A DNA stretch of 64,000 nt. Origin: a phage. Shown piece by piece: positions 9,839-64,000 of the stretch (positions are counted from its first letter, which is position 1; each line of letters begins with the position of its first letter). The notes under the pieces were generated by a model. The model did not search any database and was not told the origin of the DNA. It saw only the letters and a list, made by a program, of their open reading frames with translations. The translations under genes and the position numbers were made by a program. The stretch is from the NCBI GenBank assembly GCA_024673055.1, contig GCA_024673055.1_4537.1. One strand, written 5' to 3'.

Positions 9839-9839
9839 A

Positions 9840-9868: not shown

Positions 9869-9895
9869 CTGCTAACCACAATAAAAGGAGGAAAT

Positions 9896-10123
9896 ATGAG
9901 CATTACATTAACAGGTAACGAAATTTTCGAACTGTTTGAAATGTTAGGTTTAAACTATACCATCGAGAAAGACCCAGATTTACTTGACGTTGAAATAACA
10001 ATTCAAGAAGATACAGCAATCTACAATGATGATGGTGATGTTATCTATCAAGGTAGGGTAGCTTATTATACAGATTACCCAGAAGAAGGCGCAGTAGGAA
10101 TTCAGGAGGAAAATTATGTCTAA
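9896..10123 (+). CDS. hypothetical protein
   Basis: ATG 9896 after AAGGAGGA; downstream of promoter. Confidence 0.5.
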   Translation: MSITLTGNEIFELFEMLGLNYTIEKDPDLLDVEITIQEDTAIYNDDGDVIYQGRVAYYTDYPEEGAVGIQEENYV

Positions 10124-50818: not shown

Positions 50819-51157
50819 GATAATCTCCTCTCATCGTTAGCCATCTTTCATGGCAATCATCAATCACCAACATCATACGATCAATCTTAAGGAATTACAA
50901 TCGAATTATCATAGGGGATTCCTATCAATTATCCTATATATACCGATTATTTTTGACACCCCACTCTTGTATAAAAAGTAACCCAAAATATCTACGGGGA
51001 GAGATTATTTCGACACACCCTGTTTCATGGCAATCATGGCAAGAATATCTAATAGAATCAATATGATATGGCAAAAATCATGGCGCATACGTAAGAAGTG
51101 CTTAACGCGAATTTTCGGGCCGTCAGGTCCACGCAGCGACAATTCCCAAATATCATG

Positions 51158-51181
51158 CGAATGAGAATAATTATCATTCGT
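51158..51181. repeat. palindromic operator-like box (Fur-box-like)
   Basis: GCGAATGAGAATAATTATCATTCG near-perfect inverted repeat. Confidence 0.45.
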
Positions 51182-51336
51182 ATTCAATGACTTATGCAAG
51201 GCTCATGCCAACATAGCGACAAGGTGGGCCACTTGATTATAAATCACACAAACACTTATTTATCAATGGTTTGGCAACTTCATCATATGACGGAACAATG
51301 TCAACTAATCCCGCCCATGACAGACGGACTATTATT

Positions 51337-51358
51337 TATATGAGAATGATTATTATTT
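51337..51358. repeat. palindromic operator-like box
   Basis: ATATGAGAATGATTATTATTTA, same core as 63829 repeats. Confidence 0.4.
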
Positions 51359-52247
51359 AAACGTTTATTAACATAAAAACCAGAATAAATCAAGAATTTT
51401 CTGATTTTATTTACGTTTAAGAGAACGTGCTCAACATCCTACCGGATCGCCGTTGGCAATCCTCGGGTATTTACGCCCCCATAATTATTGCCATGCTAAT
51501 TATTTCCTTATGTAATTACCACAATGATTATTGTTATTGCGCTAATGTTATGATCTTGGTAATTACATATAATGCTAATAATAAGCCAGCGCAATAAGTG
51601 TAAGCGTCATTACGCTTGCAATTATTGCAAGCTACGCAGTAACAAGAAATAACCATCACCGATGGTTATGATTGTTGGGGTGTAGTTGGCTTATTATTAG
51701 CTCGCTATGTGTCCGGCATAGCGTGCTAATGATAATCCTGGGAATGATTCGTTTTGTAATGATTTCATTCAGTCACTATTATGGCAATAGTTATTATTTT
51801 AATGGTTTCGTTTGTTATTGTTCGTTAGTTGGTTGTTTTGTCGTGTTATCGTTATCTTGCTTAGTATTCATCATGGTTTGATTGTTTGTCGTTATCAATC
51901 ATCTTGCTATTATTCCTTTGATTATGATTAGTTTGCTTATTGTTTTAGGTTGTTGGTTAGTTAGTTGTTGCGAACTATTATCAACATTATAGTTATGCAC
52001 TTATATTGCATAGATAAACATGGATAGATGATAATGGTTATCATTGCACTAGAAAGGAGGTAAAAGGGTGTTTTTGATGGTTTGTTGTTGGTTGTTGATC
52101 GATTTTAACCGCTATAAATGGCTCTCTAACAGCCTGTTACCCTGGGAGGTATGGTTATTCGTTTAATGGTTGATTAGCTCGATACCGCGATTTATTCAAT
52201 TTTGTTCTGTGTCGGTTTTTCATAGGCGAAAGCTATCAACATTGTTC

Positions 52248-52277
52248 GGGCAAAAAGAAAGGGCGCTTGGTGCGCCC
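52248..52277 (-). terminator. intrinsic terminator ending the small-gene array
   Basis: GGGCGC-ACCAA-GCGCCC hairpin (read on - strand) followed by TTTCTTTTT; same hairpin recurs at 52826 and 58301. Confidence 0.55.
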
Positions 52278-52293
52278 CTTGTTTTGTTGTCGC

Positions 52294-52713
52294 TTATAAC
52301 GCTTCATAGATTGAGTAGATCCGGTTTGCAAGGTCATTACGAAAGCGGAATTTTTCATCACGTTTGATCATCAGATCCTTAAAACCGCATTCTTTCAGTG
52401 CTTCATTAACTTTATGGCGGCAAACGTTCATATTATCCTGCGCGTCACCAATAAACTTATTACTGTGATGCATTGCTTTGATCTCTTCCTCCAATACCAG
52501 GGCAACTACACGGATCGGATCAAGCTGATATGCGGTAACATCCATGCGGCATTGTAAACGGCTTTTAACATCGTTTACCGGATACACTGCAACCTCTTCC
52601 CCGTCAACGTTCACGATAACCAATTTACCATCGATTTCGAAGCCTTTGGCGGCGCTACCGTGACAAAAAGCGTTATCGAAGGAGTAAGCTGGATTATTTG
52701 ATTTAATGTTCAT
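52294..52713 (-). CDS. hypothetical protein
   Basis: 139-aa track ORF. Confidence 0.5.
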   Translation of the reverse strand: MNIKSNNPAYSFDNAFCHGSAAKGFEIDGKLVIVNVDGEEVAVYPVNDVKSRLQCRMDVTAYQLDPIRVVALVLEEEIKAMHHSNKFIGDAQDNMNVCRHKVNEALKECGFKDLMIKRDEKFRFRNDLANRIYSIYEAL

Positions 52714-52825
52714 GGTGTTGTCCTTTGTTTCGTTTCGTTGTTTGCTGCCAGTGAGTTAAATATAATATAACGCCGATCCCCTGTCAATAGGGGATAGCGC
52801 ATTATTTACATTTCTTTACGTTAAA

Positions 52826-52842
52826 GGGCGCTTGGTGCGCCC
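52826..52842 (-). terminator. stem-loop (copy of GGGCGCTTGGTGCGCCC)
   Basis: Identical 17-bp hairpin downstream of 52853..53221. Confidence 0.4.
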
Positions 52843-52852
52843 TTGTATAATC

Positions 52853-53221
52853 TTACTTTGTGCTGTTGTAAACGTTATCGCGTTCAACCATCACGGCAAG
52901 GCGGATCAGTTGATCAGTTGTATCGCGTAAATTGTCGGGCCATGTTTTACTGTTCCAGCTATCCAGGTTTGACTGTATATAGGTTTCAATGGCTTGATCC
53001 ATATTATCAAACAAGTTTTCCTCCAGGCTCTCGGCTGTTTCACACTGGAAAGCATTAGCGACACTATTAATCAATAAGCAAGCCAGTAAATCAGCATTAC
53101 GCCAATTTTTACGGATAGTTTCATCTGTCAGATAACCAACGAGATTAACCTTTGCGCCAGTGGTTGACGTTGCGATCACTTCTTGTGCTTTTTCAAGTGC
53201 TTTAATTGCTGATTTGCTCAT
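52853..53221 (-). CDS. hypothetical protein
   Basis: 122-aa track ORF. Confidence 0.5.
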   Translation of the reverse strand: MSKSAIKALEKAQEVIATSTTGAKVNLVGYLTDETIRKNWRNADLLACLLINSVANAFQCETAESLEENLFDNMDQAIETYIQSNLDSWNSKTWPDNLRDTTDQLIRLAVMVERDNVYNSTK

Positions 53222-53299
53222 CTTCTTTTCCTCTTTGTGGGCTTGCTGTATTGCTCGCCCTACGCAATAACTATAAGTTAACAGGAGAAATAAAGCAAG

Positions 53300-53533
53300 C
53301 TATTTTTTATAAAATTTTTCTGCTGTGATATTCTTCCCAGTAGGCTTAACCACTTGCAAGATCTTATCATGTGCCGAACGTCCAAAAGAGTAAGATCCGT
53401 ACACGGTAAACCAATAATCCCCGTTCGGTTGAACGGTTACGGCGGCGTACGGTGTACCTCTTTCATTATCCCCGATAAAGTGAGAAACATTACCGTTAAC
53501 ATTTGGTTTAGTGCTTTTAATTTGTTCGATCAT
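53300..53533 (-). CDS. hypothetical protein
   Basis: 77-aa track ORF. Confidence 0.45.
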   Translation of the reverse strand: MIEQIKSTKPNVNGNVSHFIGDNERGTPYAAVTVQPNGDYWFTVYGSYSFGRSAHDKILQVVKPTGKNITAEKFYKK

Positions 53534-53551
53534 GATATAACTCCTAAATCA

Positions 53552-53610
53552 GGCGGGAAACATTCCCGCCCTACGTGATAAATGATAATGTAAGCGTGAT
53601 CCGGTGTCAA
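53552..53610 (-). promoter_or_regulatory. promoter + stem-loop cassette (PeSL-like)
   Basis: On - strand: TTGACA (53605-53610) ... -10 ... hairpin GGCGGGAA-tgt-TTCCCGCC (53552-53570) in leader. Confidence 0.5.
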
Positions 53611-53785
53611 TAGGTAGGATTGTAAAGATTTGATAGTTTATCTCTTTGATGTTTTGTTGTTTGATAGATGTTAGCTATCAATATATAGCGGGGTCGTCCG
53701 GTGATTATCTTCCCCTGCTCCCAGGTGCCGCCCGTTCAATAAGTATAACAAAAAACAGGACAAAAACAAGCCCTGTTTATTTATC

Positions 53786-53920
53786 TTAAAACCAGTTGCC
53801 AACCGTTTCCAATAGGTCACTGACTACCAGGACAACATTAATCAGCACATGTTCAACCATGAAAGGGATAAGCGCCAGCGTTGCTACTACGATCCCCATT
53901 GTGATGATTACCTTTCTCAT
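53786..53920 (-). CDS. small membrane protein (44 aa)
   Basis: ATG 53920; hydrophobic helix; below track cutoff. Confidence 0.3.
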   Translation of the reverse strand: MRKVIITMGIVVATLALIPFMVEHVLINVVLVVSDLLETVGNWF

Positions 53921-53922
53921 GG

Positions 53923-54207
53923 TTAGCGGCTTACGTAAGCTTTACCGTTTACGGTCATCGGTATGGCCTCAAGGTCTGGATCTTCCTTAAGGTCGCGTGC
54001 AAGCTCACCGCAGCGGATACCCTCGAATCCGTAGTACTCTGTTGTGCCGTCCTGGAAAGTTTTAGCGGCAAGGCATAGGCGATAATTAACGCCGATCCGG
54101 TTCACTGCGTTAATATCGGTTAACGTGATGGATTCTGGCAACTCTTTCGCCATTACAGGCGCGTTAATACCAACAACCAGGGCAACTACTGCGATCATCT
54201 TTTTCAT
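53923..54207 (-). CDS. secreted protein (signal peptide)
   Basis: MKKMIAVVALVVGINAPVMA signal peptide. Confidence 0.5.
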   Translation of the reverse strand: MKKMIAVVALVVGINAPVMAKELPESITLTDINAVNRIGVNYRLCLAAKTFQDGTTEYYGFEGIRCGELARDLKEDPDLEAIPMTVNGKAYVSR

Positions 54208-54262
54208 GCTTTCTAGCCTCTTCCTATTGCGTTTAATGGGGCGTTACCGCCGCGCTTATGGT

Positions 54263-54499
54263 TTATTGATTGATGTTATAATGAAAATTATTTTCTTCAA
54301 TAGCTTTTAAAATAAAAGCCGTGATCGCTTTCGTGTCTACTTGTTCGAACGTATCGGAATAGCACCAATAATGATCATCCCCTACTTTCGGCGGGTAAAC
54401 CTGGACAAGGAGATCGCCACCTGGTTGATCTATAAGCTCAACATGCAAGCCGGATGATTCAGCGGTTTTAACGGCGGTTAATACTGTTGCAATACTCAT
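54263..54499 (-). CDS. hypothetical protein
   Basis: 78-aa track ORF. Confidence 0.45.
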   Translation of the reverse strand: MSIATVLTAVKTAESSGLHVELIDQPGGDLLVQVYPPKVGDDHYWCYSDTFEQVDTKAITAFILKAIEENNFHYNINQ

Positions 54500-54543
54500 A
54501 ATCTTTTCCTTTCTGATGTGGGGCGTTGCCGCCCCTTTGTTGA

Positions 54544-54843
54544 TTAGATCGCTGTTTCCAGTAGTTCGGCTAACGTCTTACCGCCTGATAGTTGGTCTAA
54601 CGTTTGCTCTTCTGGCAAGAAATTAGCTGATATTAATCCGACTTGATTTCCTTTGTGCCAATTAGCTTGACGGATGATTCCATCCTTTAAAGATTTTACC
54701 GCCATTGTGCAACCGTCGCCAAATGATTCATTTTTATGATCCATCACTTCATAAGCGCCCAGCTTGCTACTGTTAGGCACCATTAACGCGAATACATCAC
54801 CAACAACCAGTTTTTCTACGGTAATAATAGCGATAGTTTCCAT
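54544..54843 (-). CDS. hypothetical protein
   Basis: 99-aa track ORF. Confidence 0.45.
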   Translation of the reverse strand: METIAIITVEKLVVGDVFALMVPNSSKLGAYEVMDHKNESFGDGCTMAVKSLKDGIIRQANWHKGNQVGLISANFLPEEQTLDQLSGGKTLAELLETAI

Positions 54844-54921
54844 TTTACTTTCCTCATTATCGGCGGCACCATTGCCGCCCTACGCATTAAATATAAGTTA
54901 TCTAAGAGATTAGATCAAGGA

Positions 54922-55113
54922 TTATTTTGTAAAGATTACAGCTTCATCAAAATTTTCAACATAGTAAGCAAGCTCTTCATTTGCTGCAACCATTCCTAAA
55001 AGTTGGCTATAAGATAAACCTTTGATCCCTTCCTCGTTGTTTAATGCTTCGATGATTTCATCAACGGGCGCAAAAAACATGTTATTCGATTCCAGATAGG
55101 TGATAGTTTTCAT
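54922..55113 (-). CDS. hypothetical protein
   Basis: 63-aa track ORF. Confidence 0.4.
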   Translation of the reverse strand: MKTITYLESNNMFFAPVDEIIEALNNEEGIKGLSYSQLLGMVAANEELAYYVENFDEAVIFTK

Positions 55114-55134
55114 AATGTTTACCTTTTACAGTGA

Positions 55135-55190
55135 GCGGCACCATTGCCGCCCTACGTGGTAAATATTAGCACACTGGCGATCTGTGTCAA
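55135..55190 (-). promoter_or_regulatory. promoter + stem-loop cassette (PeSL-like)
   Basis: - strand TTGACA (55185-55190), -10 near 55162-55167, hairpin GCGGCA-ATGG-TGCCGC (55135-55150). Confidence 0.55.
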
Positions 55191-55196
55191 TACTTT

Positions 55197-55583
55197 TTAT
55201 TCAATATAAATCAAATTATCTTCACCAATGTAAGCCGACACGTCCGGCATGAATTTAGCGGCATTTGTTAGGCGGTTCGCCGTGTTAGTGGTGTATATTT
55301 CAGGTCGATCCCAAAAGCCTACGCCGTGACTGTTACGGGTAAAATGTAAATCATTTCCGATCTGGTTGGCTGTTGCGCCGTCGCTCATTGCCTCAGAGAT
55401 AGCGGCAAGATTAGCATTAATAAAGGCTGTTACATCCTGGGCGATCCGTTTGTCCGCGCTAGGAGAAAAATCATAATCGTCTAAGTTATCAATAAAATTA
55501 CCTTCATGATCCCTTGCTGATTCAGCAAAAATAAAGGCTTCTTTATAGCCGTTGATGACTTCGTTAATGATTTCTGTTTTCAT
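55197..55583 (-). CDS. hypothetical protein
   Basis: 128-aa track ORF. Confidence 0.5.
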   Translation of the reverse strand: MKTEIINEVINGYKEAFIFAESARDHEGNFIDNLDDYDFSPSADKRIAQDVTAFINANLAAISEAMSDGATANQIGNDLHFTRNSHGVGFWDRPEIYTTNTANRLTNAAKFMPDVSAYIGEDNLIYIE

Positions 55584-55804
55584 GCTGTACGCTCGACAAT
55601 AATAATGGTTTGCGGGATCTCGTTTTCTGCAACTATCAAGGCTTTTTTCTGCGTAATAGATATTTTAACACGTTGTAAACTAGCGGTAAAGTCTTTCATT
55701 TCATTGTGTGCGGACTTCGTGCAATGCCAGATCTCAGGCTTACCAATTTGTAAGCCGCGTAAAAATTCCGTTTTTCCTATTTTGTTCGTGATCATTTGTT
55801 TCAC
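55580..55804 (-). CDS. hypothetical protein
   Basis: 74-aa track ORF. Confidence 0.45.
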   Translation of the reverse strand: MKQMITNKIGKTEFLRGLQIGKPEIWHCTKSAHNEMKDFTASLQRVKISITQKKALIVAENEIPQTIIIVERTA

Positions 55805-55805
55805 C

Positions 55806-55910
55806 TTAACCGATACCGTGGGAAGATAGGATCATGTTAGCCATAGTTGCAACCACTCCAACCGATAACGCCAGGCCCACTATTACAACCGTGAAAATTT
55901 TCTCTAACAT
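55806..55910 (-). CDS. small membrane protein (34 aa)
   Basis: ATG 55910; hydrophobic; below cutoff. Confidence 0.3.
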   Translation of the reverse strand: MLEKIFTVVIVGLALSVGVVATMANMILSSHGIG

Positions 55911-55928
55911 GATTCTACCCTCATTAAT

Positions 55929-55990
55929 GGGCGTTGCCTTATTGCCCCGCCCTACGAAATACATTCTACCCGATTTATAATTGTTGTCAA
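55929..55990 (-). promoter_or_regulatory. promoter + stem-loop cassette (degenerate)
   Basis: TTGACA at 55985-55990 (- strand); imperfect GC-rich hairpin. Confidence 0.4.
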
Positions 55991-55991
55991 A

Positions 55992-56261
55992 TTATTTTTT
56001 CAAGCTTGACCACTCAAAACACGGGGCGATCTCGTTAAAACTTGCACCCTGTAAAGCACATAATTTTTTAGCAATAGCCGCCGTAACCTGGCGTTGTACG
56101 CGCGGATCTGCTACTGATTGGAGAAAGTAGGCGGCTTTATATGTGATCATGCTTTCGCCTGTTTCCTTGTTAACATGATGCACTATTTTAGCCTTATCAT
56201 CTTTTACCAGGATGTAACCGGATTCGATGGCCTTGATTGCAACGTCCAATGATATTTTCAT
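55992..56261 (-). CDS. hypothetical protein
   Basis: 89-aa track ORF. Confidence 0.45.
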   Translation of the reverse strand: MKISLDVAIKAIESGYILVKDDKAKIVHHVNKETGESMITYKAAYFLQSVADPRVQRQVTAAIAKKLCALQGASFNEIAPCFEWSSLKK

Positions 56262-56308
56262 GATTTACCTCTTTATTGACGGCGGGGAATACTCCCCCGC
56301 CTCATTAA

Positions 56309-56479
56309 TTATTCTTCATCGTCGCTGTTATAGTATTCAATGCCATTTTCATCGGTTACGGTGATGTTAACGCCACCGATAGCAACACGATCACGGGCAA
56401 ACGTCATAGCTTCATTTAAATCTTCAGACCAAAAAATATTGTGACCTTTGCGCGATACATAAAACATAGTCGGGATCAT
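56309..56479 (-). CDS. hypothetical protein (56 aa)
   Basis: Track ORF 56309..56563 trimmed: N-terminal 28 codons are translation of the conserved cassette hairpin (YHIGRRNGP). Confidence 0.4.
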   Translation of the reverse strand: MIPTMFYVSRKGHNIFWSEDLNEAMTFARDRVAIGGVNITVTDENGIEYYNSDDEE

Positions 56480-56498
56480 GATTTGTTTCTCTTCTGTT

Positions 56499-56563
56499 GT
56501 GAGCGGTGGACCATTCCGCCGCCCTATGTGGTAAACTTTACTACGTTGTTTGCGTGCTGTCAA
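56499..56563 (-). promoter_or_regulatory. promoter + stem-loop cassette
   Basis: TTGACA 56558-56563 (- strand); hairpin GGCGGTGGACCATTCCGCCGCC. Confidence 0.5.
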
Positions 56564-56564
56564 A

Positions 56565-56849
56565 TTATTTTTTAATGTTTTGCCCTACAAAATTAATCAT
56601 TTCCTTAAGCTGTCTCTCTGTCATGATCGTACCTGGTAACTCTTCTTTAATTTCTTCCGGTAAATAGATATTACCGCGCCAGGTTAACAAACAACCGTTT
56701 TGATCTTCGCAGATAGAATAAGAAAACATCCACTCGCAATCATTTTCAAGCTCCCAAAAACACAAAAAGTCTTCTTTCCCTAAGTTTTCAACGGTTAAAC
56801 ATAATCCGCGACGTGCTGCATAATTAGTTAGGCTTTTTGTAATTTTCAT
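56565..56849 (-). CDS. hypothetical protein
   Basis: 94-aa track ORF. Confidence 0.45.
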   Translation of the reverse strand: MKITKSLTNYAARRGLCLTVENLGKEDFLCFWELENDCEWMFSYSICEDQNGCLLTWRGNIYLPEEIKEELPGTIMTERQLKEMINFVGQNIKK

Positions 56850-56870
56850 GATTTTTCTCTCTTCTTGTGA

Positions 56871-56926
56871 GCGGCACCATTGCCGCCCTACAAGATATAT
56901 ATTATCAGACTAGGCGGACTTGTCAA
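56871..56926 (-). promoter_or_regulatory. promoter + stem-loop cassette
   Basis: Hairpin GCGGCA-CCAT-TGCCGC 56871-56886; TTGACA 56921-56926 (- strand). Confidence 0.55.
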
Positions 56927-56927
56927 A

Positions 56928-57038
56928 CTATTTTTTCTTTTTCTTTGCTTCCAACCGTCTAAAGTTACGGCTTGACTTATTGCGCAAGGCGCTTAGATCG
57001 TCGTACCCTTTCCATGCTTGCATATCTTTCGGATTCAT
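56928..57038 (-). CDS. small basic protein (36 aa)
   Basis: AAGGGGATAAC then ATG 57038; lysine-rich C-terminus. Confidence 0.3.
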   Translation of the reverse strand: MNPKDMQAWKGYDDLSALRNKSSRNFRRLEAKKKKK

Positions 57039-57047
57039 GTTATCCCC

Positions 57048-57209
57048 TTACTTGTTAGCCGGATCATATACCAGGACCGCGCCGCTTGCTTTCACGCTTT
57101 CCGCTTCATAGTTGCGCAGATCGTTTTCTGTAAGATTGAGCGCGATCACTTCCTCGATCTCAACGCCAGCGGCAAGGGCGATCTCTTTGATAATATCTGT
57201 TGTTTTCAT
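57048..57209 (-). CDS. small hypothetical protein (53 aa)
   Basis: ATG 57209; no internal stops. Confidence 0.3.
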   Translation of the reverse strand: MKTTDIIKEIALAAGVEIEEVIALNLTENDLRNYEAESVKASGAVLVYDPANK

Positions 57210-57219
57210 GGTGTGCACC

Positions 57220-57339
57220 TTATAAGATGATTAATAAGATAGTGACAACGAAAGCGATTATACTGATGGCAAATGTCATCTTTTTACCTTCGGATACTGC
57301 CGGATTCTCTACCGTGTATTCTACTGTGTACTTGCTCAT
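57220..57339 (-). CDS. small membrane protein (39 aa)
   Basis: GAGGATTACACG then ATG 57339; C-terminal TM helix. Confidence 0.3.
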   Translation of the reverse strand: MSKYTVEYTVENPAVSEGKKMTFAISIIAFVVTILLIIL

Positions 57340-57362
57340 CGTGTAATCCTCTCGTTTGCTTT

Positions 57363-57420
57363 GGGAACTATTCCCGCCGCCCTATGAATTAAATATACAC
57401 TATCTCAAAATGATTGCAAG
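57363..57420 (-). promoter_or_regulatory. promoter + stem-loop cassette (TTGCAA -35 variant)
   Basis: Hairpin GGGAACTATTCCC; TTGCAA at 57415-57420 (- strand). Confidence 0.4.
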
Positions 57421-57436
57421 CCTTTTTCTAAATTAT

Positions 57437-57721
57437 TTATGCAGTAAACAAACCATCATTTACAACGGCGGCGATGATCTCCCGTGCCATTGATTCAGGG
57501 AAAGGGGCGCTATAATCCTGGCTTGTCTCATCGGTATCGGTGATCCAATGATAAGCTAACGAGTAAAAGCCTTTACTAACTGTTTTCAGTGAGATGATGA
57601 TCACTCGGTCAAGCTTATTGGTGAATGTTGCCGTTAATGTGTTACCCTCCTGCGTCATGTTGGACAAGTAAGCTGGATCATTAATCAGGGAAAACATTAG
57701 CACGGTGTTAGCTTTACTCAT
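57437..57721 (-). CDS. hypothetical protein
   Basis: Track ORF trimmed to second ATG (57721) downstream of cassette hairpin. Confidence 0.45.
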   Translation of the reverse strand: MSKANTVLMFSLINDPAYLSNMTQEGNTLTATFTNKLDRVIIISLKTVSKGFYSLAYHWITDTDETSQDYSAPFPESMAREIIAAVVNDGLFTA

Positions 57722-57741
57722 GATTGCATCCTCAAAGGGGC

Positions 57742-57795
57742 GCGGCACCATTGCCGCCCTACACGATAACTATAACACAATGTAAAACAGGATCA
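57742..57795 (-). promoter_or_regulatory. promoter + stem-loop cassette (TTGATC -35 variant)
   Basis: Hairpin GCGGCA-CCAT-TGCCGC 57742-57757. Confidence 0.4.
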
Positions 57796-57999
57796 ACCTT
57801 TATTTTTCCACGGTGTTAGTTTGTTAATCATTGGTGATAAATAGCGTTTACCAACGTAAAACAGCACGCCAACTGATGCAACGGCGGCGACCTCATGCAT
57901 AGCCGACGGGAAACGGGTATCATAATAAGATCCAATAATAGCAATAGCGGCAACGGCTGCAACGTCGATAATGATTTTCTCTTGTTTTGCGGTGATCAT
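57793..57999 (-). CDS. small membrane protein
   Basis: 68 aa; two hydrophobic helices. Confidence 0.45.
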   Translation of the reverse strand: MITAKQEKIIIDVAAVAAIAIIGSYYDTRFPSAMHEVAAVASVGVLFYVGKRYLSPMINKLTPWKNKG

Positions 58000-58021
58000 A
58001 ATATTTACCTTTTTGTATGGT

Positions 58022-58078
58022 GGGGAACTATTCCCCGCCTGATGTAATACAGTTTAACAGGTCCGGTTATGGTGTCAA
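58022..58078 (-). promoter_or_regulatory. promoter + stem-loop cassette
   Basis: Hairpin GGGGAACTATTCCCC; TTGACA 58073-58078 (- strand). Confidence 0.5.
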
Positions 58079-58084
58079 CCACTT

Positions 58085-58270
58085 TTAAAGATATTTTATG
58101 CTAATGACGTTTTCAGGTTTTACCTTGTTATGATGTGCATCAACATAGATTAAACCATCGTCAGAAAAGCCCAGGATCACGCCCTGCGCGATAAAACCGT
58201 ACTCGTCACGGTAACGCACGGCTATTTTTAATGTTGCGTTGTAGGCTGTTTTAAGCTCGTTTAAAGTCAT
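58085..58270 (-). CDS. hypothetical protein
   Basis: 61-aa track ORF. Confidence 0.4.
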   Translation of the reverse strand: MTLNELKTAYNATLKIAVRYRDEYGFIAQGVILGFSDDGLIYVDAHHNKVKPENVISIKYL

Positions 58271-58300
58271 TTTTGTTTATCCTCTACATGTAAAAAGAAA

Positions 58301-58317
58301 GGGCGCTTGATGCGCCC
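58301..58317 (-). terminator. stem-loop (third copy of GGGCGCTTGATGCGCCC) with U-tract
   Basis: Hairpin followed on - strand by TTTCTTTTT. Confidence 0.45.
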
Positions 58318-58325
58318 TTGTTATG

Positions 58326-58472
58326 TTAATCCTCTAAATCCATCCAATTATATTTGTCACTCTTCCCGCGCTTTGTTTTATTGCGCTTGTCGCCTTTGCG
58401 GATCACTTCCTCGTTCCAGGCCTTGCGGATCTTGGAAGATTGGATTTTTTCTGCGCGATTAGATGTATTCAT
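58326..58472 (-). CDS. small basic protein (48 aa)
   Basis: ATG 58472 downstream of cassette; lysine/arginine-rich. Confidence 0.3.
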   Translation of the reverse strand: MNTSNRAEKIQSSKIRKAWNEEVIRKGDKRNKTKRGKSDKYNWMDLED

Positions 58473-58492
58473 TTTGTTTCCTCTTTATATGA

Positions 58493-58545
58493 GCGGCACC
58501 ATTGCCGCTATATTATTAATTTAAACTTTTTTGTAAAATTGTCAA
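58493..58545 (-). promoter_or_regulatory. promoter + stem-loop cassette
   Basis: Hairpin GCGGCA-CCAT-TGCCGC 58493-58508; TTGACA 58540-58545. Confidence 0.5.
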
Positions 58546-58551
58546 GGTTTA

Positions 58552-58905
58552 TCATTCATAAGAGCAAGCAAGGATCACGCCTGCAATATAAAGCCAATAA
58601 TTTTCCCTTTCTCGTTGGATTTTATCATCGCTGCTATTCTCTTTAATGTATCCCCAGGATGTTAACAAGCGATCAATTTCCCAATATTCGAAAGCGATAT
58701 TAATATCTGATGGCAAACCTTGTAACCATGATGCAAGTGCTTTAACAATACTATAATTAAAACGTGATTGGTTATCAGGGTACCAGTACTCGGAATTAAA
58801 ACGGCGCATCAATTCCGCGATCTTCTCTTTTTCGGTTGTAATACCGTAATCATTAAAATCGATAGCGGCAAGGATGTACTCTTTAATTGCATTTTGTGCT
58901 TTCAT
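58552..58905 (-). CDS. hypothetical protein
   Basis: 117-aa track ORF. Confidence 0.5.
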   Translation of the reverse strand: MKAQNAIKEYILAAIDFNDYGITTEKEKIAELMRRFNSEYWYPDNQSRFNYSIVKALASWLQGLPSDINIAFEYWEIDRLLTSWGYIKENSSDDKIQRERENYWLYIAGVILACSYE

Positions 58906-58923
58906 GGTTTTTCTCTCTTTTTA

Positions 58924-58980
58924 GCGGGAACTATTCCCGCCCTACGTGTAACAGTTTACTGAAAATTAAATCCGTGTCAA
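58924..58980 (-). promoter_or_regulatory. promoter + stem-loop cassette
   Basis: Hairpin GCGGGAA-CTA-TTCCCGC; TTGACA 58975-58980. Confidence 0.5.
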
Positions 58981-58983
58981 GCT

Positions 58984-59205
58984 TTATTTTGTTACTACCA
59001 TTTGGTACCCTGTCTCAATGTTAGTAAACACTGTTATCCCGTCCTGGCGTTCACTCATTAACATACAAGGCGCTAACATCCTTTCTACTGCCTTGCACTC
59101 GTTGTAAACGGCGGTTATATCTCCTGCGGCCTTGTCTTCTGTGGTGAATGTATCGTTTACGTAAACTTGACCAGCAACAACGGTGACAATAGCGAAAGTG
59201 ATCAT
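58984..59205 (-). CDS. hypothetical protein
   Basis: 73-aa track ORF; shares first 5 codons (MITFA) and upstream 20 nt with next gene. Confidence 0.45.
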   Translation of the reverse strand: MITFAIVTVVAGQVYVNDTFTTEDKAAGDITAVYNECKAVERMLAPCMLMSERQDGITVFTNIETGYQMVVTK

Positions 59206-59279
59206 GGTGTTTCCTTGTCAGTAGTGGTTTCTCTTCTCTATAGCGCCCATTATAAGGCGCTATAACGAAAAGTCAACGA

Positions 59280-59447
59280 TTATTTTTTAAGGCTTAAAGT
59301 GCCTAGCTTATCAGCGTGACGCAGACCAGGGAAGATCCATTTTCCTGATTCATCTTTTACAGGTGCTTTAAACGTAGCGCCCAGGTTGGCGGCGTTAACT
59401 TTACGGGCAACGTTGCGAGCGGCTTCACGGGTAGCGAAAGTGATCAT
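59280..59447 (-). CDS. small hypothetical protein (55 aa)
   Basis: ATG 59447; N-terminus MITFA duplicated from 58984..59205. Confidence 0.35.
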   Translation of the reverse strand: MITFATREAARNVARKVNAANLGATFKAPVKDESGKWIFPGLRHADKLGTLSLKK

Positions 59448-59472
59448 GGTGTTTTCCTCTTCTCTTTGTTAG

Positions 59473-59558
59473 GCGGTGGACCATTCCGCCGCCTTGATGT
59501 AATACAGTTTACTTTATTTTATTAAGATTGCAAGCGGTTTTATGAAATAATTGTCAAA
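59473..59558 (-). promoter_or_regulatory. promoter + stem-loop cassette
   Basis: Hairpin GGCGGTGGACCATTCCGCCGCC; TTGACA 59553-59558. Confidence 0.5.
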
Positions 59559-59755
59559 GTAAAATCATAAGACTGATTTAATTTATATTGTACTTTATTG
59601 CCGTAGTAGTCACCTTTACGTAAAGATCCGCGAATACCTATCACATCCTTTACATCTTTAAGATTTTTTACGCCTGTAATGTCTTTATTGAAATACTCGT
59701 CATCTGAAAATAAAACTTGACTTGCATTTTTTAACAGTGTGCGGATATTGGCCAT
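59540..59755 (-). CDS. hypothetical protein
   Basis: 71-aa track ORF. Confidence 0.4.
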   Translation of the reverse strand: MANIRTLLKNASQVLFSDDEYFNKDITGVKNLKDVKDVIGIRGSLRKGDYYGNKVQYKLNQSYDFTLTIIS

Positions 59756-59780
59756 CGTAATAATCTCTCTTCTGTTGTGA

Positions 59781-59836
59781 GCGGCACCATTGCCGCCCTA
59801 CGTAATACAGTTTACTCTTTTTCTTTCCGGTGTCAA
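59781..59836 (-). promoter_or_regulatory. promoter + stem-loop cassette
   Basis: Hairpin GCGGCA-CCAT-TGCCGC 59781-59796; TTGACA 59831-59836. Confidence 0.55.
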
Positions 59837-59845
59837 CAATCTTTT

Positions 59846-60073
59846 TCAGATTAATTCGTCCAGGCATAACAGGCGATCAACGTTGAGATCGGTTAGGCTG
59901 ATGGTTGGCACCTGGTAGGATTCGATGTACTCAACGCTTGCATATTCCCCAAAATTAGCAACAGCCCACTTATTCAAGATCTCACATACATCATTAATCT
60001 TTTTGTTTGTTACAACGGCAATGACCTGGGAAGTGCCAACGGTGCCAGATACGCGAACAATATTGATAGCCAT
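59846..60073 (-). CDS. hypothetical protein
   Basis: 75-aa track ORF. Confidence 0.45.
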   Translation of the reverse strand: MAINIVRVSGTVGTSQVIAVVTNKKINDVCEILNKWAVANFGEYASVEYIESYQVPTISLTDLNVDRLLCLDELI

Positions 60074-60085
60074 AATCTTTAATCT

Positions 60086-60154
60086 CTCTGTTTTGGCGGG
60101 AAACCACTTCCCGCCCTATGTGATACATCTTACACTAATTTTAAACGTTGTCAA
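60086..60154 (-). promoter_or_regulatory. promoter + stem-loop cassette
   Basis: Hairpin GGCGGGAA-ACCAC-TTCCCGCC 60086-60106; TTGACA 60149-60154. Confidence 0.55.
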
Positions 60155-60163
60155 CTGTTTTTA

Positions 60164-60403
60164 TTACATTCCAACCATCGCGGCACGGATCGCAGTAGTG
60201 CTATATTTGAAACCGTCTGGCGTTTTATCTTGTCCAGTTTGTTCCAGAAAAAGCATCATATCCCGCGCCGCATCATTACGATTAGCATTAGCGTTAATAA
60301 AATCTTGGGCCAACCGGTATAACGATTCATCGTTATTAATCCAAAGGCTTACATTCCAATGATTTTTGTTTTTGTGACCGTTGTACATTTTAGATTTAGC
60401 CAT
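60164..60403 (-). CDS. hypothetical protein
   Basis: 79-aa track ORF. Confidence 0.45.
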   Translation of the reverse strand: MAKSKMYNGHKNKNHWNVSLWINNDESLYRLAQDFINANANRNDAARDMMLFLEQTGQDKTPDGFKYSTTAIRAAMVGM

Positions 60404-60427
60404 GATTTTTCTCTCTTTTTCAGTGAG

Positions 60428-60486
60428 GCGGGAAGTGTTCCCGCTCTCTATGTAATATAGTTTACTCTTTCTATTCGTGCTGTCAA
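60428..60486 (-). promoter_or_regulatory. promoter + stem-loop cassette
   Basis: Hairpin GCGGGAAGTGTTCCCGC; TTGACA 60481-60486. Confidence 0.5.
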
Positions 60487-60492
60487 TGCTTT

Positions 60493-60876
60493 TTATAAAT
60501 CTTTTTTACGTTTTACATCGCTCGCATGACTGTATACAGTGATCCCATTGTCACGGCAAAAACGGGAAAGGTAGGCATAATTTGAAAACTCTTTACCTTC
60601 CAGGTTGATAACCTTGCTAAACTCTTCTAGGGCAACGGTATCAAAATGATCACCATAGCCATATTGAAACGGAACGTTAACCACCTCGATCAGTTTACCG
60701 CCGATCTCAACGTCAACCATTAAAGAAAAATATGTGTTACCGTAGGACCGTTGAAACCAGCGACGGGCGCTAATATGCACCGCCTCAATGCTGGATAATT
60801 CAATTTTAGCCGTGTTAGCCATGGTAGCATAAGCGGAAACATTAATATTAATAGCCATGATGATAACCTTTTTCAT
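60493..60876 (-). CDS. hypothetical protein
   Basis: 127-aa track ORF. Confidence 0.5.
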   Translation of the reverse strand: MKKVIIMAININVSAYATMANTAKIELSSIEAVHISARRWFQRSYGNTYFSLMVDVEIGGKLIEVVNVPFQYGYGDHFDTVALEEFSKVINLEGKEFSNYAYLSRFCRDNGITVYSHASDVKRKKDL

Positions 60877-60880
60877 TGTT

Positions 60881-60940
60881 GGCGGGAAACCACTTCCCGC
60901 CTTATGTGGTAAACTATACCAGAAGTTTAAACAGTGTCAA
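60881..60940 (-). promoter_or_regulatory. promoter + stem-loop cassette
   Basis: Hairpin GGCGGGAAACCACTTCCCGCC; TTGACA 60935-60940. Confidence 0.5.
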
Positions 60941-60946
60941 CCGTTT

Positions 60947-61309
60947 TTATTCGTAAATTTTACCGCTTTCGGCCCATACCATAACGCGGCGCATACTATC
61001 CCAAGTGTTTTGATCCAAGTTTAAGCCGTGCAACTCTTCGGTACTTCCCAGACCAGGTACCGCCTTGTTGTAAGTTGCATATAAGCGCCCTTGATACTCA
61101 TACGCCAGGGTGAGATCCGTTTGAATCATCTTTTTAAGCATAGCATTAAGCATCATATTAGCGGCATGTTGATCACGTTTTAGCGGTAACATATCAATAA
61201 GGGCGCGATAAGCTGAAACATGAATATCAACCGTTTCACGTGGTAAATTTTTCATATCATCGCGGAAAGATACCAGATTAAACATGATAGTATTGATTTG
61301 CTTGCTCAT
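60947..61309 (-). CDS. hypothetical protein
   Basis: 120-aa track ORF. Confidence 0.5.
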   Translation of the reverse strand: MSKQINTIMFNLVSFRDDMKNLPRETVDIHVSAYRALIDMLPLKRDQHAANMMLNAMLKKMIQTDLTLAYEYQGRLYATYNKAVPGLGSTEELHGLNLDQNTWDSMRRVMVWAESGKIYE

Positions 61310-61330
61310 TGTGTTACCCTTTTTTGTTTT

Positions 61331-61391
61331 GGCGGTGGACCATTCCGCCGCCCTATGTGATACATCTTATCAGATTAAAAAACGTTGTCAA
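61331..61391 (-). promoter_or_regulatory. promoter + stem-loop cassette
   Basis: Hairpin GGCGGTGGACCATTCCGCCGCC; TTGACA 61386-61391. Confidence 0.5.
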
Positions 61392-61400
61392 GAATATTTT

Positions 61401-61496
61401 TTAGAAAATAATAGCCGCTACTACAACCCAAAATGGAACGGCGAAAATGATAGCGTTAATCGTTCCAACCGTCAAGCTATTTTCTTTATTAATCAT
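61401..61496 (-). CDS. small membrane protein (31 aa)
   Basis: ATG 61496; hydrophobic C-terminal half. Confidence 0.3.
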   Translation of the reverse strand: MINKENSLTVGTINAIIFAVPFWVVVAAIIF

Positions 61497-61525
61497 TGCA
61501 AACCTCTTGCATAATTTCACTATGA

Positions 61526-61582
61526 GCGGCACCATTGCCGCCCTACGTGGTAAATATTATGCCAGTGGCGGCGATATGTCAA
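61526..61582 (-). promoter_or_regulatory. promoter + stem-loop cassette
   Basis: Hairpin GCGGCA-CCAT-TGCCGC 61526-61541; TTGACA 61577-61582. Confidence 0.55.
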
Positions 61583-62145
61583 AGACTATTTTCAAAGTTT
61601 TCTAGCGCGATCCTTTTTTCTTCCTCTGTCGGCTGATAATCAGGAAAAGCATCAACACACAACAACGGCGGGATCTCTTCGTACTCTTCCTCTTCCGTTG
61701 TCTCCTCGTCTTCCTCCTGGGCTATGGCTGCAATTTTGGCTAATTTTCTTTCAGCTTGAATCAATTTACCATCAAGTACGTTTTTTGCCATGTTGTAAGC
61801 GGTCCAGGTGATGCGCTTACTTTCCAGGGCTTGATCGAGCGCCGCTATCTTGCTGGGGTATTCATCCAGGACACGAAAAGCCGGATCAATTTTGTACAAA
61901 GGATTATCTTTCGCGCCGTCGCTCGCATCTTCCGCACTGGATAAATCAGCGTTACCATTTGCCAGCCAACCAGGGCGCACATAACGCGCTTTTACGTTGC
62001 CGTTACTACGTGCTAATCTGTTACCTATTTGCTCACCGCTATATCCCGTGGATTCATCGATAAGATGATCGGGAATGATGCGCGGATCATCTGCTTCATG
62101 TTTTACCCAAGACTGGATCACATATTCGCGGCCCATATTAACCAC
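61579..62145 (-). CDS. hypothetical protein with acidic C-terminal region
   Basis: 188-aa track ORF. Confidence 0.5.
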   Translation of the reverse strand: MVNMGREYVIQSWVKHEADDPRIIPDHLIDESTGYSGEQIGNRLARSNGNVKARYVRPGWLANGNADLSSAEDASDGAKDNPLYKIDPAFRVLDEYPSKIAALDQALESKRITWTAYNMAKNVLDGKLIQAERKLAKIAAIAQEEDEETTEEEEYEEIPPLLCVDAFPDYQPTEEEKRIALENFENSL

Positions 62146-62395
62146 CTTTTTTCAACAATTGGCATACTTTAAAAAGACTTGCTGAATCCTTGCAAGGGTA
62201 GAAAGATGTACGATAATCACGTACGCCAACCTTGCGGATCTCGATGTTTTCGCATGTTGTTTGATCAAAGATATTTATTTCATCCCGCCCCCTTATATAA
62301 ACATAGTGGGGATGTATTAACGCATATTTTGCTAATCTGTAAAAAGCGTTATCTTTGAACGCGATCACGTGACCTTTTAATTTGATGTAAAACAT
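62138..62395 (-). CDS. hypothetical protein
   Basis: 85-aa track ORF. Confidence 0.45.
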   Translation of the reverse strand: MFYIKLKGHVIAFKDNAFYRLAKYALIHPHYVYIRGRDEINIFDQTTCENIEIRKVGVRDYRTSFYPCKDSASLFKVCQLLKKGG

Positions 62396-62413
62396 TCTAC
62401 CACCTTACAAATA

Positions 62414-62468
62414 GCGGGAACTATTCCCGCTTTATGTAACATATTAACAAATTAGTCGTTAATGTCAA
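62414..62468 (-). promoter_or_regulatory. promoter + stem-loop cassette
   Basis: Hairpin GCGGGAA-CTA-TTCCCGC; TTGACA 62463-62468. Confidence 0.5.
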
Positions 62469-62471
62469 ACC

Positions 62472-62744
62472 TTAAAGCAAAAACGCTACATCTTGCGCTT
62501 TTAGTGTAGTGTCGATCATTTTCGGGCTTTTATAATCCACAAAGCGCGCGGTTTTTTCAATAGCAAAACCGAGATAATCTTGCTTGTTGAAATTACATTC
62601 TTTCTTAAATGTTTCCCGTGCAATGGCAATCGCTGCGTCCAGGGATAAACGCCCGTCAATATTGATATTAGCGAAAGATCCGCCACCGCTCATAGGTTTA
62701 CCAGTTGTGCCAGCTACGATCATTGTTGCGCTATATGATGCCAT
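62472..62744 (-). CDS. hypothetical protein
   Basis: Track ORF 62472..62801 trimmed: first 19 codons (MYHIGRRNGP...) are the translated cassette hairpin. Confidence 0.45.
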   Translation of the reverse strand: MASYSATMIVAGTTGKPMSGGGSFANINIDGRLSLDAAIAIARETFKKECNFNKQDYLGFAIEKTARFVDYKSPKMIDTTLKAQDVAFLL

Positions 62745-62766
62745 GATGATAATCTCTCTGTTGTGA

Positions 62767-62827
62767 GCGGCTGGACCATTCCGCCGCCCTATGTGATACA
62801 TCTTATCAGGTTGTTGTTTGTTGTCAA
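62767..62827 (-). promoter_or_regulatory. promoter + stem-loop cassette
   Basis: Hairpin GGCTGGACCATTCCGCCGCC; TTGACA 62822-62827. Confidence 0.5.
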
Positions 62828-62833
62828 TACTTT

Positions 62834-63031
62834 TTATTCTATCCCTGCAATTTGATTAACGCGCTTGCATTTTGTAGCGTGCTGGTCTTCTGTAATGACT
62901 CCCATTTCTAACAAGGAATCAATAAAAGATAAAACCGTTTCATGATCATCCTGGGGATGACTGAACTCAGTAAAACCATTTACCACGACGCTGATTTGTC
63001 CTGCTTTCGCTACTATGTGCAATGTTGCCAT
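62834..63031 (-). CDS. hypothetical protein
   Basis: 65-aa track ORF; first (most upstream) gene of the array. Confidence 0.4.
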   Translation of the reverse strand: MATLHIVAKAGQISVVVNGFTEFSHPQDDHETVLSFIDSLLEMGVITEDQHATKCKRVNQIAGIE

Positions 63032-63304
63032 GATTTTAACTCCAGGTGATGAATGATGTTTTTTGTTGGTGGACGGTGGATTATGGAGATCCTCACCTTT
63101 GCCCGTCCTGCATTGCGCCCGCCTGTTGTTTATTGTCGTTGTGCCGCGCCCCCCTCGACAAGATGAATACTACGCTACCAGGTGAGGAACGTCAACCACT
63201 TTTTCAATCTTTTTTATTTTCTTTTTGCTTGCTATGTATAAAGGAAAAGGCTATCATCTTTCTACCGCGCCAACCAGGGCGCACAACAAAGAAAGGGCGA
63301 CACC

Positions 63305-63571
63305 ATGACAAATACTACATTACACCTTATGCACTCATTGGGCTGGCAAGGCGGCACGGTGCACCAGGTCGCAAGCGCAACGGGCTTAAAGGTTGAAACC
63401 GTTCTCAACCTGGGCGATCATAAGGTGGAAGAAATAGAAAACTTTGATCCGTTCGCTGATGGTTATTTATGGGCTTGCAGTGGCGGCGGGGAAAGCAAGA
63501 TCCCACCAGGGGCGCGGGGCGATATGCATTTTTGGTTAGGTGTCCTATCCTGGCAAGAAAACAAAAAATAA
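63305..63571 (+). CDS. hypothetical protein (GC-rich ORF)
   Basis: 88-aa ORF; upstream AAAGGGCG weak SD; noticeably more GC-rich than the early module. Confidence 0.35.
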   Translation: MTNTTLHLMHSLGWQGGTVHQVASATGLKVETVLNLGDHKVEEIENFDPFADGYLWACSGGGESKIPPGARGDMHFWLGVLSWQENKK

Positions 63572-63575
63572 TCTT

Positions 63576-63605
63576 GACAAGCCCAGGGATCGGGCTTATA
63601 CTGTT
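63576..63605 (+). promoter_or_regulatory. sigma70-like promoter (TTGACA-17-TATACT)
   Basis: -35 TTGACA 63576-63581; -10 TATACT 63599-63604. Confidence 0.45.
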
Positions 63606-63828
63606 TTACATACAGAAGAGGAAGCGCCACCCCACGGCGTAAAGGCGGGGCTAACATACCAGGGCGCTGGTTGGAAGGTTGATCGCCGGTAGGCTGGGCG
63701 CTATATATTTGTAAAGAAATGTAAAGATAAAATAATCGCTTGCTTTCCTGGCTGGATCTGTTATTCTTATTACATGGCGAGGGGACACGGGAGCGCGAGA
63801 CAAACACCGCCCCTGCGCGTCATTCTCT

Positions 63829-63937
63829 AAATGAGAATGATTATCATTTACCTTATCAAATAAGAATCAATCTCATTTATAAACCTAAATGCGAATCATT
63901 ATCATTTGCATTTCCACATGAGAACTCTTCTCATTCT
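63829..63937. repeat. four tandem palindromic 22-bp boxes at 29-bp periodicity (iteron/operator-like, Fur-box-like)
   Basis: AAATGAGAATGATTATCATTTA (63829), AAATAAGAATCAATCTCATTTA (63858), AAATGCGAATCATTATCATTTG (63887), ACATGAGAACTCTTCTCATTCT (63916). Confidence 0.55.
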
Positions 63938-64000
63938 CACCTGCATAAAAATTTTTGTAAACTTTAAATTTTGGTTTTGTACTTTCATTTTTGTAAAAGC

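Follow-up and report, generated by a model that had tools for sequence, protein, structure and literature searches.

When several similar palindromes follow one another at regular intervals in gene-free phage DNA, the question is whether they are sites for a protein and, if so, for which one. We addressed this question in a 64,000-nucleotide stretch of phage DNA (assembly GCA_024673055.1, contig GCA_024673055.1_4537.1; hereafter the window, numbered from its first base), which carries close to its end, at positions 63829-63937, an array of four inverted repeats of 19–22 bp. Our analysis indicates that the Fur protein of the host probably binds these boxes. We lean, with some reserve, towards reading them as high-affinity sites for host Fe2+-Fur that would have a local architectural or roadblock role in gene-free DNA.

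The four repeats quoted in an earlier sequence-only reading of the window are present as written: Box 1 (AAATGAGAATGATTATCATTTA) at 63829-63850, Box 2 (AAATAAGAATCAATCTCATTTA) at 63858-63879, Box 3 (AAATGCGAATCATTATCATTTG) at 63887-63908 and Box 4 (ACATGAGAACTCTTCTCATTCT) at 63916-63937. The 29-bp periodicity claimed for them is exact, with the 19-mer cores beginning at 63830, 63859, 63888 and 63917, and the two related boxes reported farther to the left were both located, at 51158-51181 (box A, core AATGAGAATAATTATCATT) and 51337-51358 (box B, core TATGAGAATGATTATTATT). The boxes are built as a 19-bp 9-1-9 inverted repeat, AATGAGAAT-S-ATTCTCATT, which encloses a 7-1-7 Fur core. Their 15-bp core, TGAGAATNATTATCA, is one position off the 7-1-7 Fur core TGATAATNATTATCA. 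A search for TGAGAATNATTATCA allowing up to three mismatches gave 39 occurrences in the window, a 2.5-fold excess over shuffled sequence (15.3 ± 4.7).

A Fur matrix was learned de novo from 13 Fur-repressed promoter regions of E. coli K-12 MG1655 (fepA-fes, fepD-entS, fepB-entC, fhuA, cirA, exbB, fecA, fecI, feoA, ryhB, tonB, fhuF and fiu), with phage sequence excluded from training and a palindromic 19-bp motif search run from 60 random starts. The search converged on AATGATAATnATTATCATT, the accepted Fur motif, and the 13 host training sites scored 14.4–25.8 bits, or 11.6–24.9 bits with leave-one-out. The top six matches in the window were at 51160 (box A, 28.3 bits), 63830 (Box 1, the strongest of the array, 28.0 bits), 63888 (Box 3, 24.5 bits), 51339 (box B, 24.1 bits), 52027 (21.3 bits) and 63859 (Box 2, 20.0 bits), while the next-best match elsewhere in the window reached 15.7 bits. 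In 300 dinucleotide-preserving shuffles of the window, sites of at least 20 bits averaged 0.07 against five observed, sites of at least 24 bits numbered zero against four observed, and the highest score was 23.7 bits; shuffling restricted to the two AT-rich non-coding regions had the same outcome. The boxes thus score clearly above background in a Fur-matrix scan (20.0–28.3 bits against at most 23.7 in the shuffles), with the exception of Box 4, which is weak here (11.9 bits) and reaches 16.5 bits in ESCO5, while its equivalent in the diverged IMG/VR relative L043 reaches 28.0 bits. The site at 52027-52045 had not been listed before; it lies in gene-free DNA and is also present in the related phage Mt1B1_P17.

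The finer structure of the boxes agrees with that of host sites. Box 1 differs from the ryhB site recovered by the host motif search at one of 19 positions, and the TGAGAA half-site of the phage boxes is also found in the host sites fhuA, fecI, ryhB and exbB. Zur was considered as another candidate for the binding protein; the Zur box has AAATG/CATTT flanks in common with the boxes, but its inner half-site is TTATA, as against AGAAT here. Overlapping secondary sites offset by 6 bp accompany Box 1 (63836, 13.9 bits), Box 3 (63894, 18.0 bits) and box A (51166, 16.7 bits), an arrangement known from the clusters at real Fur sites, where neighbouring sites overlap with an offset of 3 or 6 bp (Chen et al. 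2007, PMC2189734).

A second motif was learned on phage arrays alone, from 41 boxes (37 distinct) in 12 arrays. Its consensus is AATGAGAATSATTCTCATT, and a comparison of its matrix with that of E. coli Fur gives a correlation of r = 0.94 (best column-permuted control, 0.68). With scores that equal or exceed those of host sites, secondary sites at 6 bp and this correlation, the resemblance to Fur boxes proposed in the sequence-only reading is strongly supported. Watson-Crick complementarity of mirror positions in the phage boxes is not above that expected of independent half-sites: position ±4 is complementary in 16 of the 37 distinct boxes against 19.6 expected, and the non-pairing combination G/A is the second commonest there (12/37). 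A consensus RNA fold of the array region was likewise essentially without covariation support. The half-sites lack compensatory covariation, and each is therefore conserved on its own account, the pattern expected of sites for a dimeric DNA-binding protein and not of hairpins. They combine the 7-1-7/9-1-9 inverted repeat of a Fur operator with independently conserved half-sites, and they lack the pairing kept by compensatory changes that marks a hairpin or intrinsic terminator.

The last 700 bases of the window match about 70 complete Phapecoctavirus genomes (phAPEC8, ESCO5 and relatives; Stephanstirmvirinae) over their full length at 97–99% identity, and returned no match in a search of E. 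coli genomes. Judged by these matches, the window is from a Phapecoctavirus of the phAPEC8/ESCO5 type, a lytic coliphage; relatives of this type are virulent myoviruses of ~150 kb. The array sits, in ESCO5 and phAPEC8, in a ~1.26 kb gap without convincing genes. One flank of this gap is a long series of small minus-strand genes (window ~52.3–63.0 kb) and the other a minus-strand GTP cyclohydrolase II/YbiA-like gene just beyond the window end. According to the open reading frame list and the annotation of ESCO5 and phAPEC8, which includes predicted host-type promoters, the series forms a block of about 35 small putative early genes at 52294-63031 (minus strand), between Fur-like sites.

The boxes on the far side of this block lie in a different context. 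Window positions 51104-51431 are the equivalent of the 328-bp direct terminal repeat, and hence of the physical genome end, of phAPEC8-like phages: positions 1-328 of Mt1B1_P17 equal its positions 150875-151202 at 100% identity and map to this interval, and three genome records (Mt1B1_P17, BI-EHEC and WPEC6) start or stop at the base equivalent to 51104. Terminal repeats of 328 bp and 342 bp have been described for the phAPEC8-like phage Schickermooser (PMC6563267) and the related phage BME3 (PMC12210895), respectively. Because 51104-51431 equals the terminal repeat, the window reads as a circular permutation crossing the physical genome ends, and boxes A and B both lie inside the direct terminal repeat. 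Box A is conserved in Justusliebigvirus muut (28.3 bits), whose terminus-adjacent region has strong sites as well (25.8 bits at L009 3520), not aligned to window site 52027. The picture of a gene block bracketed by one operator type therefore holds in that sites are found on both sides, but it was incomplete: the left boxes belong to the 328-bp terminal repeat, which makes the bracketed block the left-terminal module of early genes. Window positions 51432-52290, which separate the terminal repeat from the last early gene, form a gene-free stretch of ~0.86 kb that includes the site at 52027 and many GTT/ATT-type short repeats, with a bidirectional terminator-like hairpin at its end (~52250-52285).

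The distribution of sites along a whole genome was equally uneven. In Mt1B1_P17 the four-box array occupies positions 13,303-13,379 of 151,202 bp, 8.8% from the left end; the BME3 array, at ~11.9 kb of a 147,371-bp record, would be 8.1% from that end provided that the record opens with the terminal repeat. Sites of at least 20 bits occur in Mt1B1_P17 only in the two non-coding regions, giving 8–9 strong sites per virion genome, and a scan of the remaining ~90 kb of this ~151-kb genome found no further site of at least 18 bits. The same scan showed no Fur site before ribonucleotide reductase, replication or structural genes, its single 17.2-bit match being intra-coding. Because Mt1B1_P17 has no strong sites outside these two regions, the boxes are not operators scattered ahead of phage genes but are confined to two stretches of non-coding DNA. 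Iron-responsive control of a phage gene block, one of the functions first suggested, gains no support here, as no box lies on a convincing protein-gene promoter and this relative has no other strong Fur site.

The array is coupled to a conserved set of upstream elements, all on the plus strand. These are a promoter-like sequence P1 (TTGACA-17-TATACT; 63574-63602), with 11 of 12 consensus matches and conserved in seven lineages; RNA1 (63609-63706), a GC-rich candidate structured RNA; a second promoter-like sequence P2 (TTGCTT-16-TATTCT; 63750-63777), read from the sequence and with equivalents in PVP-SE1, phiTE, PBES02 and the Klebsiella, Serratia and FFH2 phages; and RNA2 (63780-63825), a GC-rich element with a GAGACAAnCACC core that the alignment shows to end 4–10 nt before Box 1. 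RNA1 (GCCACCCCACGGCG...GGCGGGGCUAAC...GGAAGGUGGAUCGCCGG) hardly varies over ~60 nt between two subfamilies; its predicted fold is pseudoknot-like, and the consensus fold has 16 pairs, two of them with compensatory changes. The distance from RNA2 to Box 1 is fixed in ten sequences, and Box 1 stands directly 3' of RNA2 in all ten anchor-extracted sequences as well as in FFH2. An Rfam search of the whole window at the gathering threshold, and of 63560-64000 at permissive settings, found no credible family and only chance matches caused by the palindromes, including a spurious miRNA-like match that arises because neighbouring boxes can form long hairpins. Neither RNA1 nor RNA2 fits any Rfam family, and they could represent a phage non-coding RNA or riboswitch-like element not described so far; a tRNA scan found none.

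The order P1-RNA1-P2-RNA2-box is kept across the Stephanstirmvirinae and Vequintavirinae, with one to five boxes. Its carriers are Phapecoctavirus, Justusliebigvirus, L043, Certrevirus (phiTE, PBES02), Klebsiella Mydovirus, a Serratia phage and PVP-SE1, while the rV5-like FFH2 has a modified layout of two promoter-RNA units with a box after each; outside the window, the promoter/RNA unit was located at L007 1460-1700, L070 905-1160, L073 640-900, L071 870-1125, L072 860-1100 and L008 1365-1600. PVP-SE1 has one box, Mydovirus, the Serratia phage and FFH2 two, Phapecoctavirus and Certrevirus four and Justusliebigvirus five. Seven of the arrays examined have the 29-bp centre-to-centre spacing although their spacers have diverged, and box position is likewise conserved despite diverged spacers in Phapecoctavirus, L043, Certrevirus, Mydovirus, the Serratia phage and Vequintavirus. 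L043 retains the number and spacing of the boxes but distributes the strengths differently among them (18.3, 22.2, 27.3 and 28.0 bits). The ~1.2-kb gap around the array is non-coding in all lineages compared. The layout is thus conserved in related genomes, and Mt1B1_P17 has sites of at least 20 bits in both non-coding regions.

The box sequence extends well beyond these relatives. A sensitive DNA search with the array alone matched 596 phage records, mostly T5-like Demerecviridae of Salmonella, Escherichia and Klebsiella. In T5 itself (AY587007.1) the match falls in the annotated injection stop signal, where the boxes are direct repeat C (DRC) and palindromes E, G and I of the Wang et al. 2005 annotation of AY587007.1; they score 22–28 bits and lie just left of 'major nick 1, 7.9%' (9661-9668). 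The T5-like phages phiR2-01 and EC122 have seven and three such boxes. An IMG/VR search anchored on the 15-mer gave mostly chance matches and five true homologues. More than 120 IMG/VR viral contigs contain an exact AATGAGAATSATTATCATT, examples being L174 (8432-8620), L097 (5780-5906) and L113 (255-362). Among the 119 analysed (L075-L193), a 60-bp span holds two or more strong Fur-like sites in 54 and three or more in 24. GC-rich contigs are among them, such as L174 (54% GC), with three to four boxes spaced 39–43 bp apart in a 630-bp intergenic gap; the proteins flanking the L174 array had no informative PHROG match. Judging from these contigs, Fur-like arrays may be widespread in phages.

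Because the boxes are common to unrelated phage families infecting Enterobacterales, the protein that binds them is most simply a host protein, and because of the box sequence we take that protein to be Fur. In the mechanism we propose, Fur dimers would bind each box as they do at canonical Fur boxes, some boxes offering a second overlapping site 6 bp off. The 29-bp centre-to-centre distance is about one Fur footprint, and full occupancy would cover the array with a continuous Fur coat of ~116 bp; such a coat of Fe2+-Fur is suggested because the spacing matches the ~30-bp lower bound of published Fur footprints (PMC2189734). Since promoter, RNA and box are so tightly coupled, the role of this tract is probably local: beginning a few bases past two tandem sigma-70-type promoters with conserved structured RNAs, it could act as an iron-dependent roadblock or insulator. 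In iron-replete cells the Fur tract would limit rightward transcription from P1 and P2 into the AT-rich repeats that follow, and Fur without iron would release it. The sites in and beside the terminal repeat would form a second Fur-bound boundary at the genome end and, together with the array, mark both borders of the early module.

Several observations weigh against this interpretation. Position ±4 and the centre are the sole systematic differences between the phage and E. coli motifs, but the phage consensus favours G at ±4 (65%; 20% in the E. coli sites), where the host motif has T, and it has C/G at the centre, differences that could reflect a different protein with Fur-like specificity. 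Only 13 host sites went into the Fur matrix. Nor is the 29-bp spacing kept throughout, since it is 17/24/29/23 bp in Justusliebigvirus and ~35 bp in T5. A classical operator role is unsupported: in the lineages compared the boxes overlap no convincing, conserved promoter and are not followed by a protein gene, so that the geometry of a classical operator is missing, and we infer the roadblock role from position only. The one promoter-like site within the array of the window is a weak TTTATA-18-TATCAT (9 of 12 matches), not conserved in other lineages and without a protein gene downstream; several lineages have a plus-strand promoter-like element 15–30 bp past the last box.

The shift in the consensus at ±4 and the centre is also what would be expected if the boxes were operators of a phage-encoded dimeric protein with Fur-like specificity, controlling an early-to-middle switch at the borders of the early module. 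The roughly 35 small early-block proteins are uncharacterised and would offer candidates, as would a small conserved plus-strand open reading frame of 88 aa (63305-63571) directly upstream, which runs opposite to all its neighbours and ends at P1. Yet the same boxes occur in T5-like Demerecviridae, in two myovirus subfamilies and in many unrelated IMG/VR contigs, and the TGAGAA half-site is shared by real E. coli Fur sites. The 88-aa frame was examined as the cognate regulator and rejected: it has no Pfam family, DNA-binding or other, and its 152 matching records are mainly Stephanstirmvirinae, with few if any T5-like phages among them (two Salmonella records were left unchecked). With the boxes present in unrelated T5-like phages and this frame not co-distributed with them, a dimeric phage regulator, which the sequence-only reading had put forward, is weakened, and we consider it unlikely.

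Somewhat more doubtful still is a part in a replication origin, in which the promoters would make GC-rich primer or R-loop RNAs and the boxes would be iterons ahead of an AT-rich unwinding region. Such a layout would parallel the T7 primary origin and T4 oriF/oriG. Strong tandem promoters without a downstream gene are indeed followed by AT-rich repeats (AAACTTTAAAT; five to seven CGATCGAGAcCC in Vequintavirinae), and the whole gap is non-coding in every lineage. Iterons, however, are direct, single-orientation repeats in helical phase with a lineage-specific initiator nearby, whereas the boxes are palindromes, their 29-bp spacing is ~2.8 helical turns and out of phase, and spacing ranges from 17 to 38 bp between lineages. 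The box sequence is moreover common to unrelated phages and does not track a lineage-specific initiator, no initiator gene is annotated nearby (flanking open reading frames were not all searched), no DnaA boxes are present, and GC skew makes no turn and follows only the direction of transcription. The iteron proposal has lost ground accordingly; Fur could in any case bind the boxes even if the region served as an origin.

The AT-rich region begins in the window at 63940-64000 and continues for ~400 bp beyond its end. It consists of ~40-bp repeat units, AAACTTTAAATTTTGsTTTTsnACTTTCAyTTTTGTAAA (also at L001 6640-6860), and AAACTTTAAAT occurs three times in ESCO5 (L001 6640-7080), inside longer repeated units. 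The equivalent region of the Vequintavirinae has five to seven CGATCGAGA(C/A)CC copies beside AAAAATTTTTT tracts (L070 1330-1590, L071 1270-1430, L073 1070-1240).

The 8–9 strong sites per virion genome could also act as a sponge, the selected function being to titrate host Fur during replication and so to de-repress iron uptake and RyhB and feed iron-dependent ribonucleotide reductases; the phage encodes both aerobic and anaerobic forms of the latter. In the Fur titration assay, multicopy Fur boxes reportedly de-repress the regulon, and an E. coli cell contains roughly 5,000–10,000 Fur molecules. A sponge would nevertheless need neither the fixed place 3' of RNA2, nor the 29-bp spacing, nor placement in the terminal repeat, and PVP-SE1, with its single box, would make a poor one. 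T5 is reported to degrade host DNA early (bioRxiv 10.1101/866236), which would make de-repression pointless there. We think this explanation about as improbable as an origin; under Fe2+-Fur binding, titration during replication would be an automatic side effect and probably not the selected function. Finally, it is very improbable that the palindromes act as RNA or single-stranded DNA hairpins (intrinsic terminators of RNA2, or cruciforms), for although a terminator scan picks the left half of Box 1 with an upstream half-copy (CATTCTC-N5-GAGAATG) followed by a U-rich stretch, and adjacent boxes can pair into long hairpins, the half-sites lack compensatory covariation, the stems are AU-rich with a frequent G/A mismatch, and the upstream half-copy is absent from unit 1 of FFH2.

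The early genes are accompanied by a further repeated element. The 20-bp PHIRE promoters annotated in phAPEC8 before early genes are copies of a GC-rich stem-loop, TAGGGCGGCAATGGTGCCGCTCA, on the minus strand at L002 177-196, 609-628, 1463-1482, 2479-2498, 3368-3387 and 4007-4026, with a copy at ~63138-63157 of the window. They were considered as relatives of the boxes and set aside, the stem-loop being unrelated. Because each copy lies immediately 3' of a -10-like hexamer, it is likelier to be a conserved hairpin in the 5' leader of an early transcript than to be a promoter.

If Fur binds the boxes, host iron status would be wired into the earliest stage of infection of a large, therapeutically used group of coliphages (phAPEC8-, rV5- and PVP-SE1-like). 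A bolder proposal, and a long shot, is that Fur arrays are a device common to unrelated virulent enterobacterial phages, from T5-like siphoviruses to phAPEC8-like and rV5-like myoviruses, which marks the inner border of the first-entering early module. Were it true, the host factor still missing from the T5 injection stop signal would be Fur bound at DRC and palindromes E, G and I, and in phAPEC8/rV5-like phages DNA entry or early transcription would meet an unrecognised pause or boundary, dependent on Fur and hence sensitive to iron, ~8–9% from the genome end. A review of T5 calls the function of its repeats 'impossible to guess', treats the responsible host protein as unsolved and makes no mention of Fur (Davison, bioRxiv 10.1101/866236); within the incomplete coverage of our literature search, we found nothing linking Fur to phAPEC8-like phages, T5 first-step transfer, virulent-phage arrays or decoys. 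The analysis gives a concrete identity to repeats in the T5 stop signal, whose host factor has been a question for more than 50 years.

Set beside known systems, the array resembles operators and iterons of the lambda type (OR/OL; ori-lambda) in having a control region where similar palindromic sites for a dimeric protein stand several in a row. It departs from them in that no cognate phage repressor or initiator gene adjoins it, and its box sequence is common to unrelated phages and fits a host regulator. With the Fur boxes of E. coli (ryhB, fecI, fhuA, fhuF; PMC2189734) it shares the 19-bp inverted repeat, the 7-1-7 core, comparable or higher scores and the 6-bp secondary sites. Unlike these, the phage boxes overlap no convincing -35/-10 elements of a regulated gene, are discrete sites at ~29 bp and not overlapping clusters, stand in gene-free DNA and a terminal repeat, and favour G at ±4.

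Two-step DNA transfer has been demonstrated for T5 only, and the T5 array differs from the present one in lying inside a 10-kb terminal repeat, at ~35-bp spacing. DnaA boxes, a LexA-like palindrome and nine DRD repeats border it, none of which the present phage has: neither of its non-coding regions contains DnaA or LexA-type boxes, and the paired DnaA boxes, IRD'/IRC' inverted repeats and DRD repeats of the stop signal have no counterpart. The early-block list has no open reading frame above 188 aa, and an A1-sized protein is therefore absent. Palindrome D of T5, TACTGTATAAATATACAGTA (L074 9330-9349; also L003 and L004), fits the LexA-box pattern CTGT-N8-ACAG, and because it adjoins DnaA and Fur-like boxes, sites for several host DNA-binding proteins seem to be gathered in the stop-signal region. 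What the two systems have in common is the box sequence itself (T5 9577-9595, AATGAGAATCATTATCATT, 28.0 bits), close to the first-step-transfer shear point at ~9618 (Davison, bioRxiv 10.1101/866236), and a multi-box array in a large untranslated region ~8–9% from the left end, at the inner border of the first early-gene block; the present phage has its untranslated repeat region at that same border (8.8% in Mt1B1_P17). Fur boxes are textbook elements; what is unusual here is that a virulent phage has them in conserved arrays, with a conserved 29-bp spacing, in DNA without genes as well as in its terminal repeat, flanking the early module on either side. The element is of a known kind; its use, in array placement, conserved spacing and commonality with the T5 stop signal, appears to be new.

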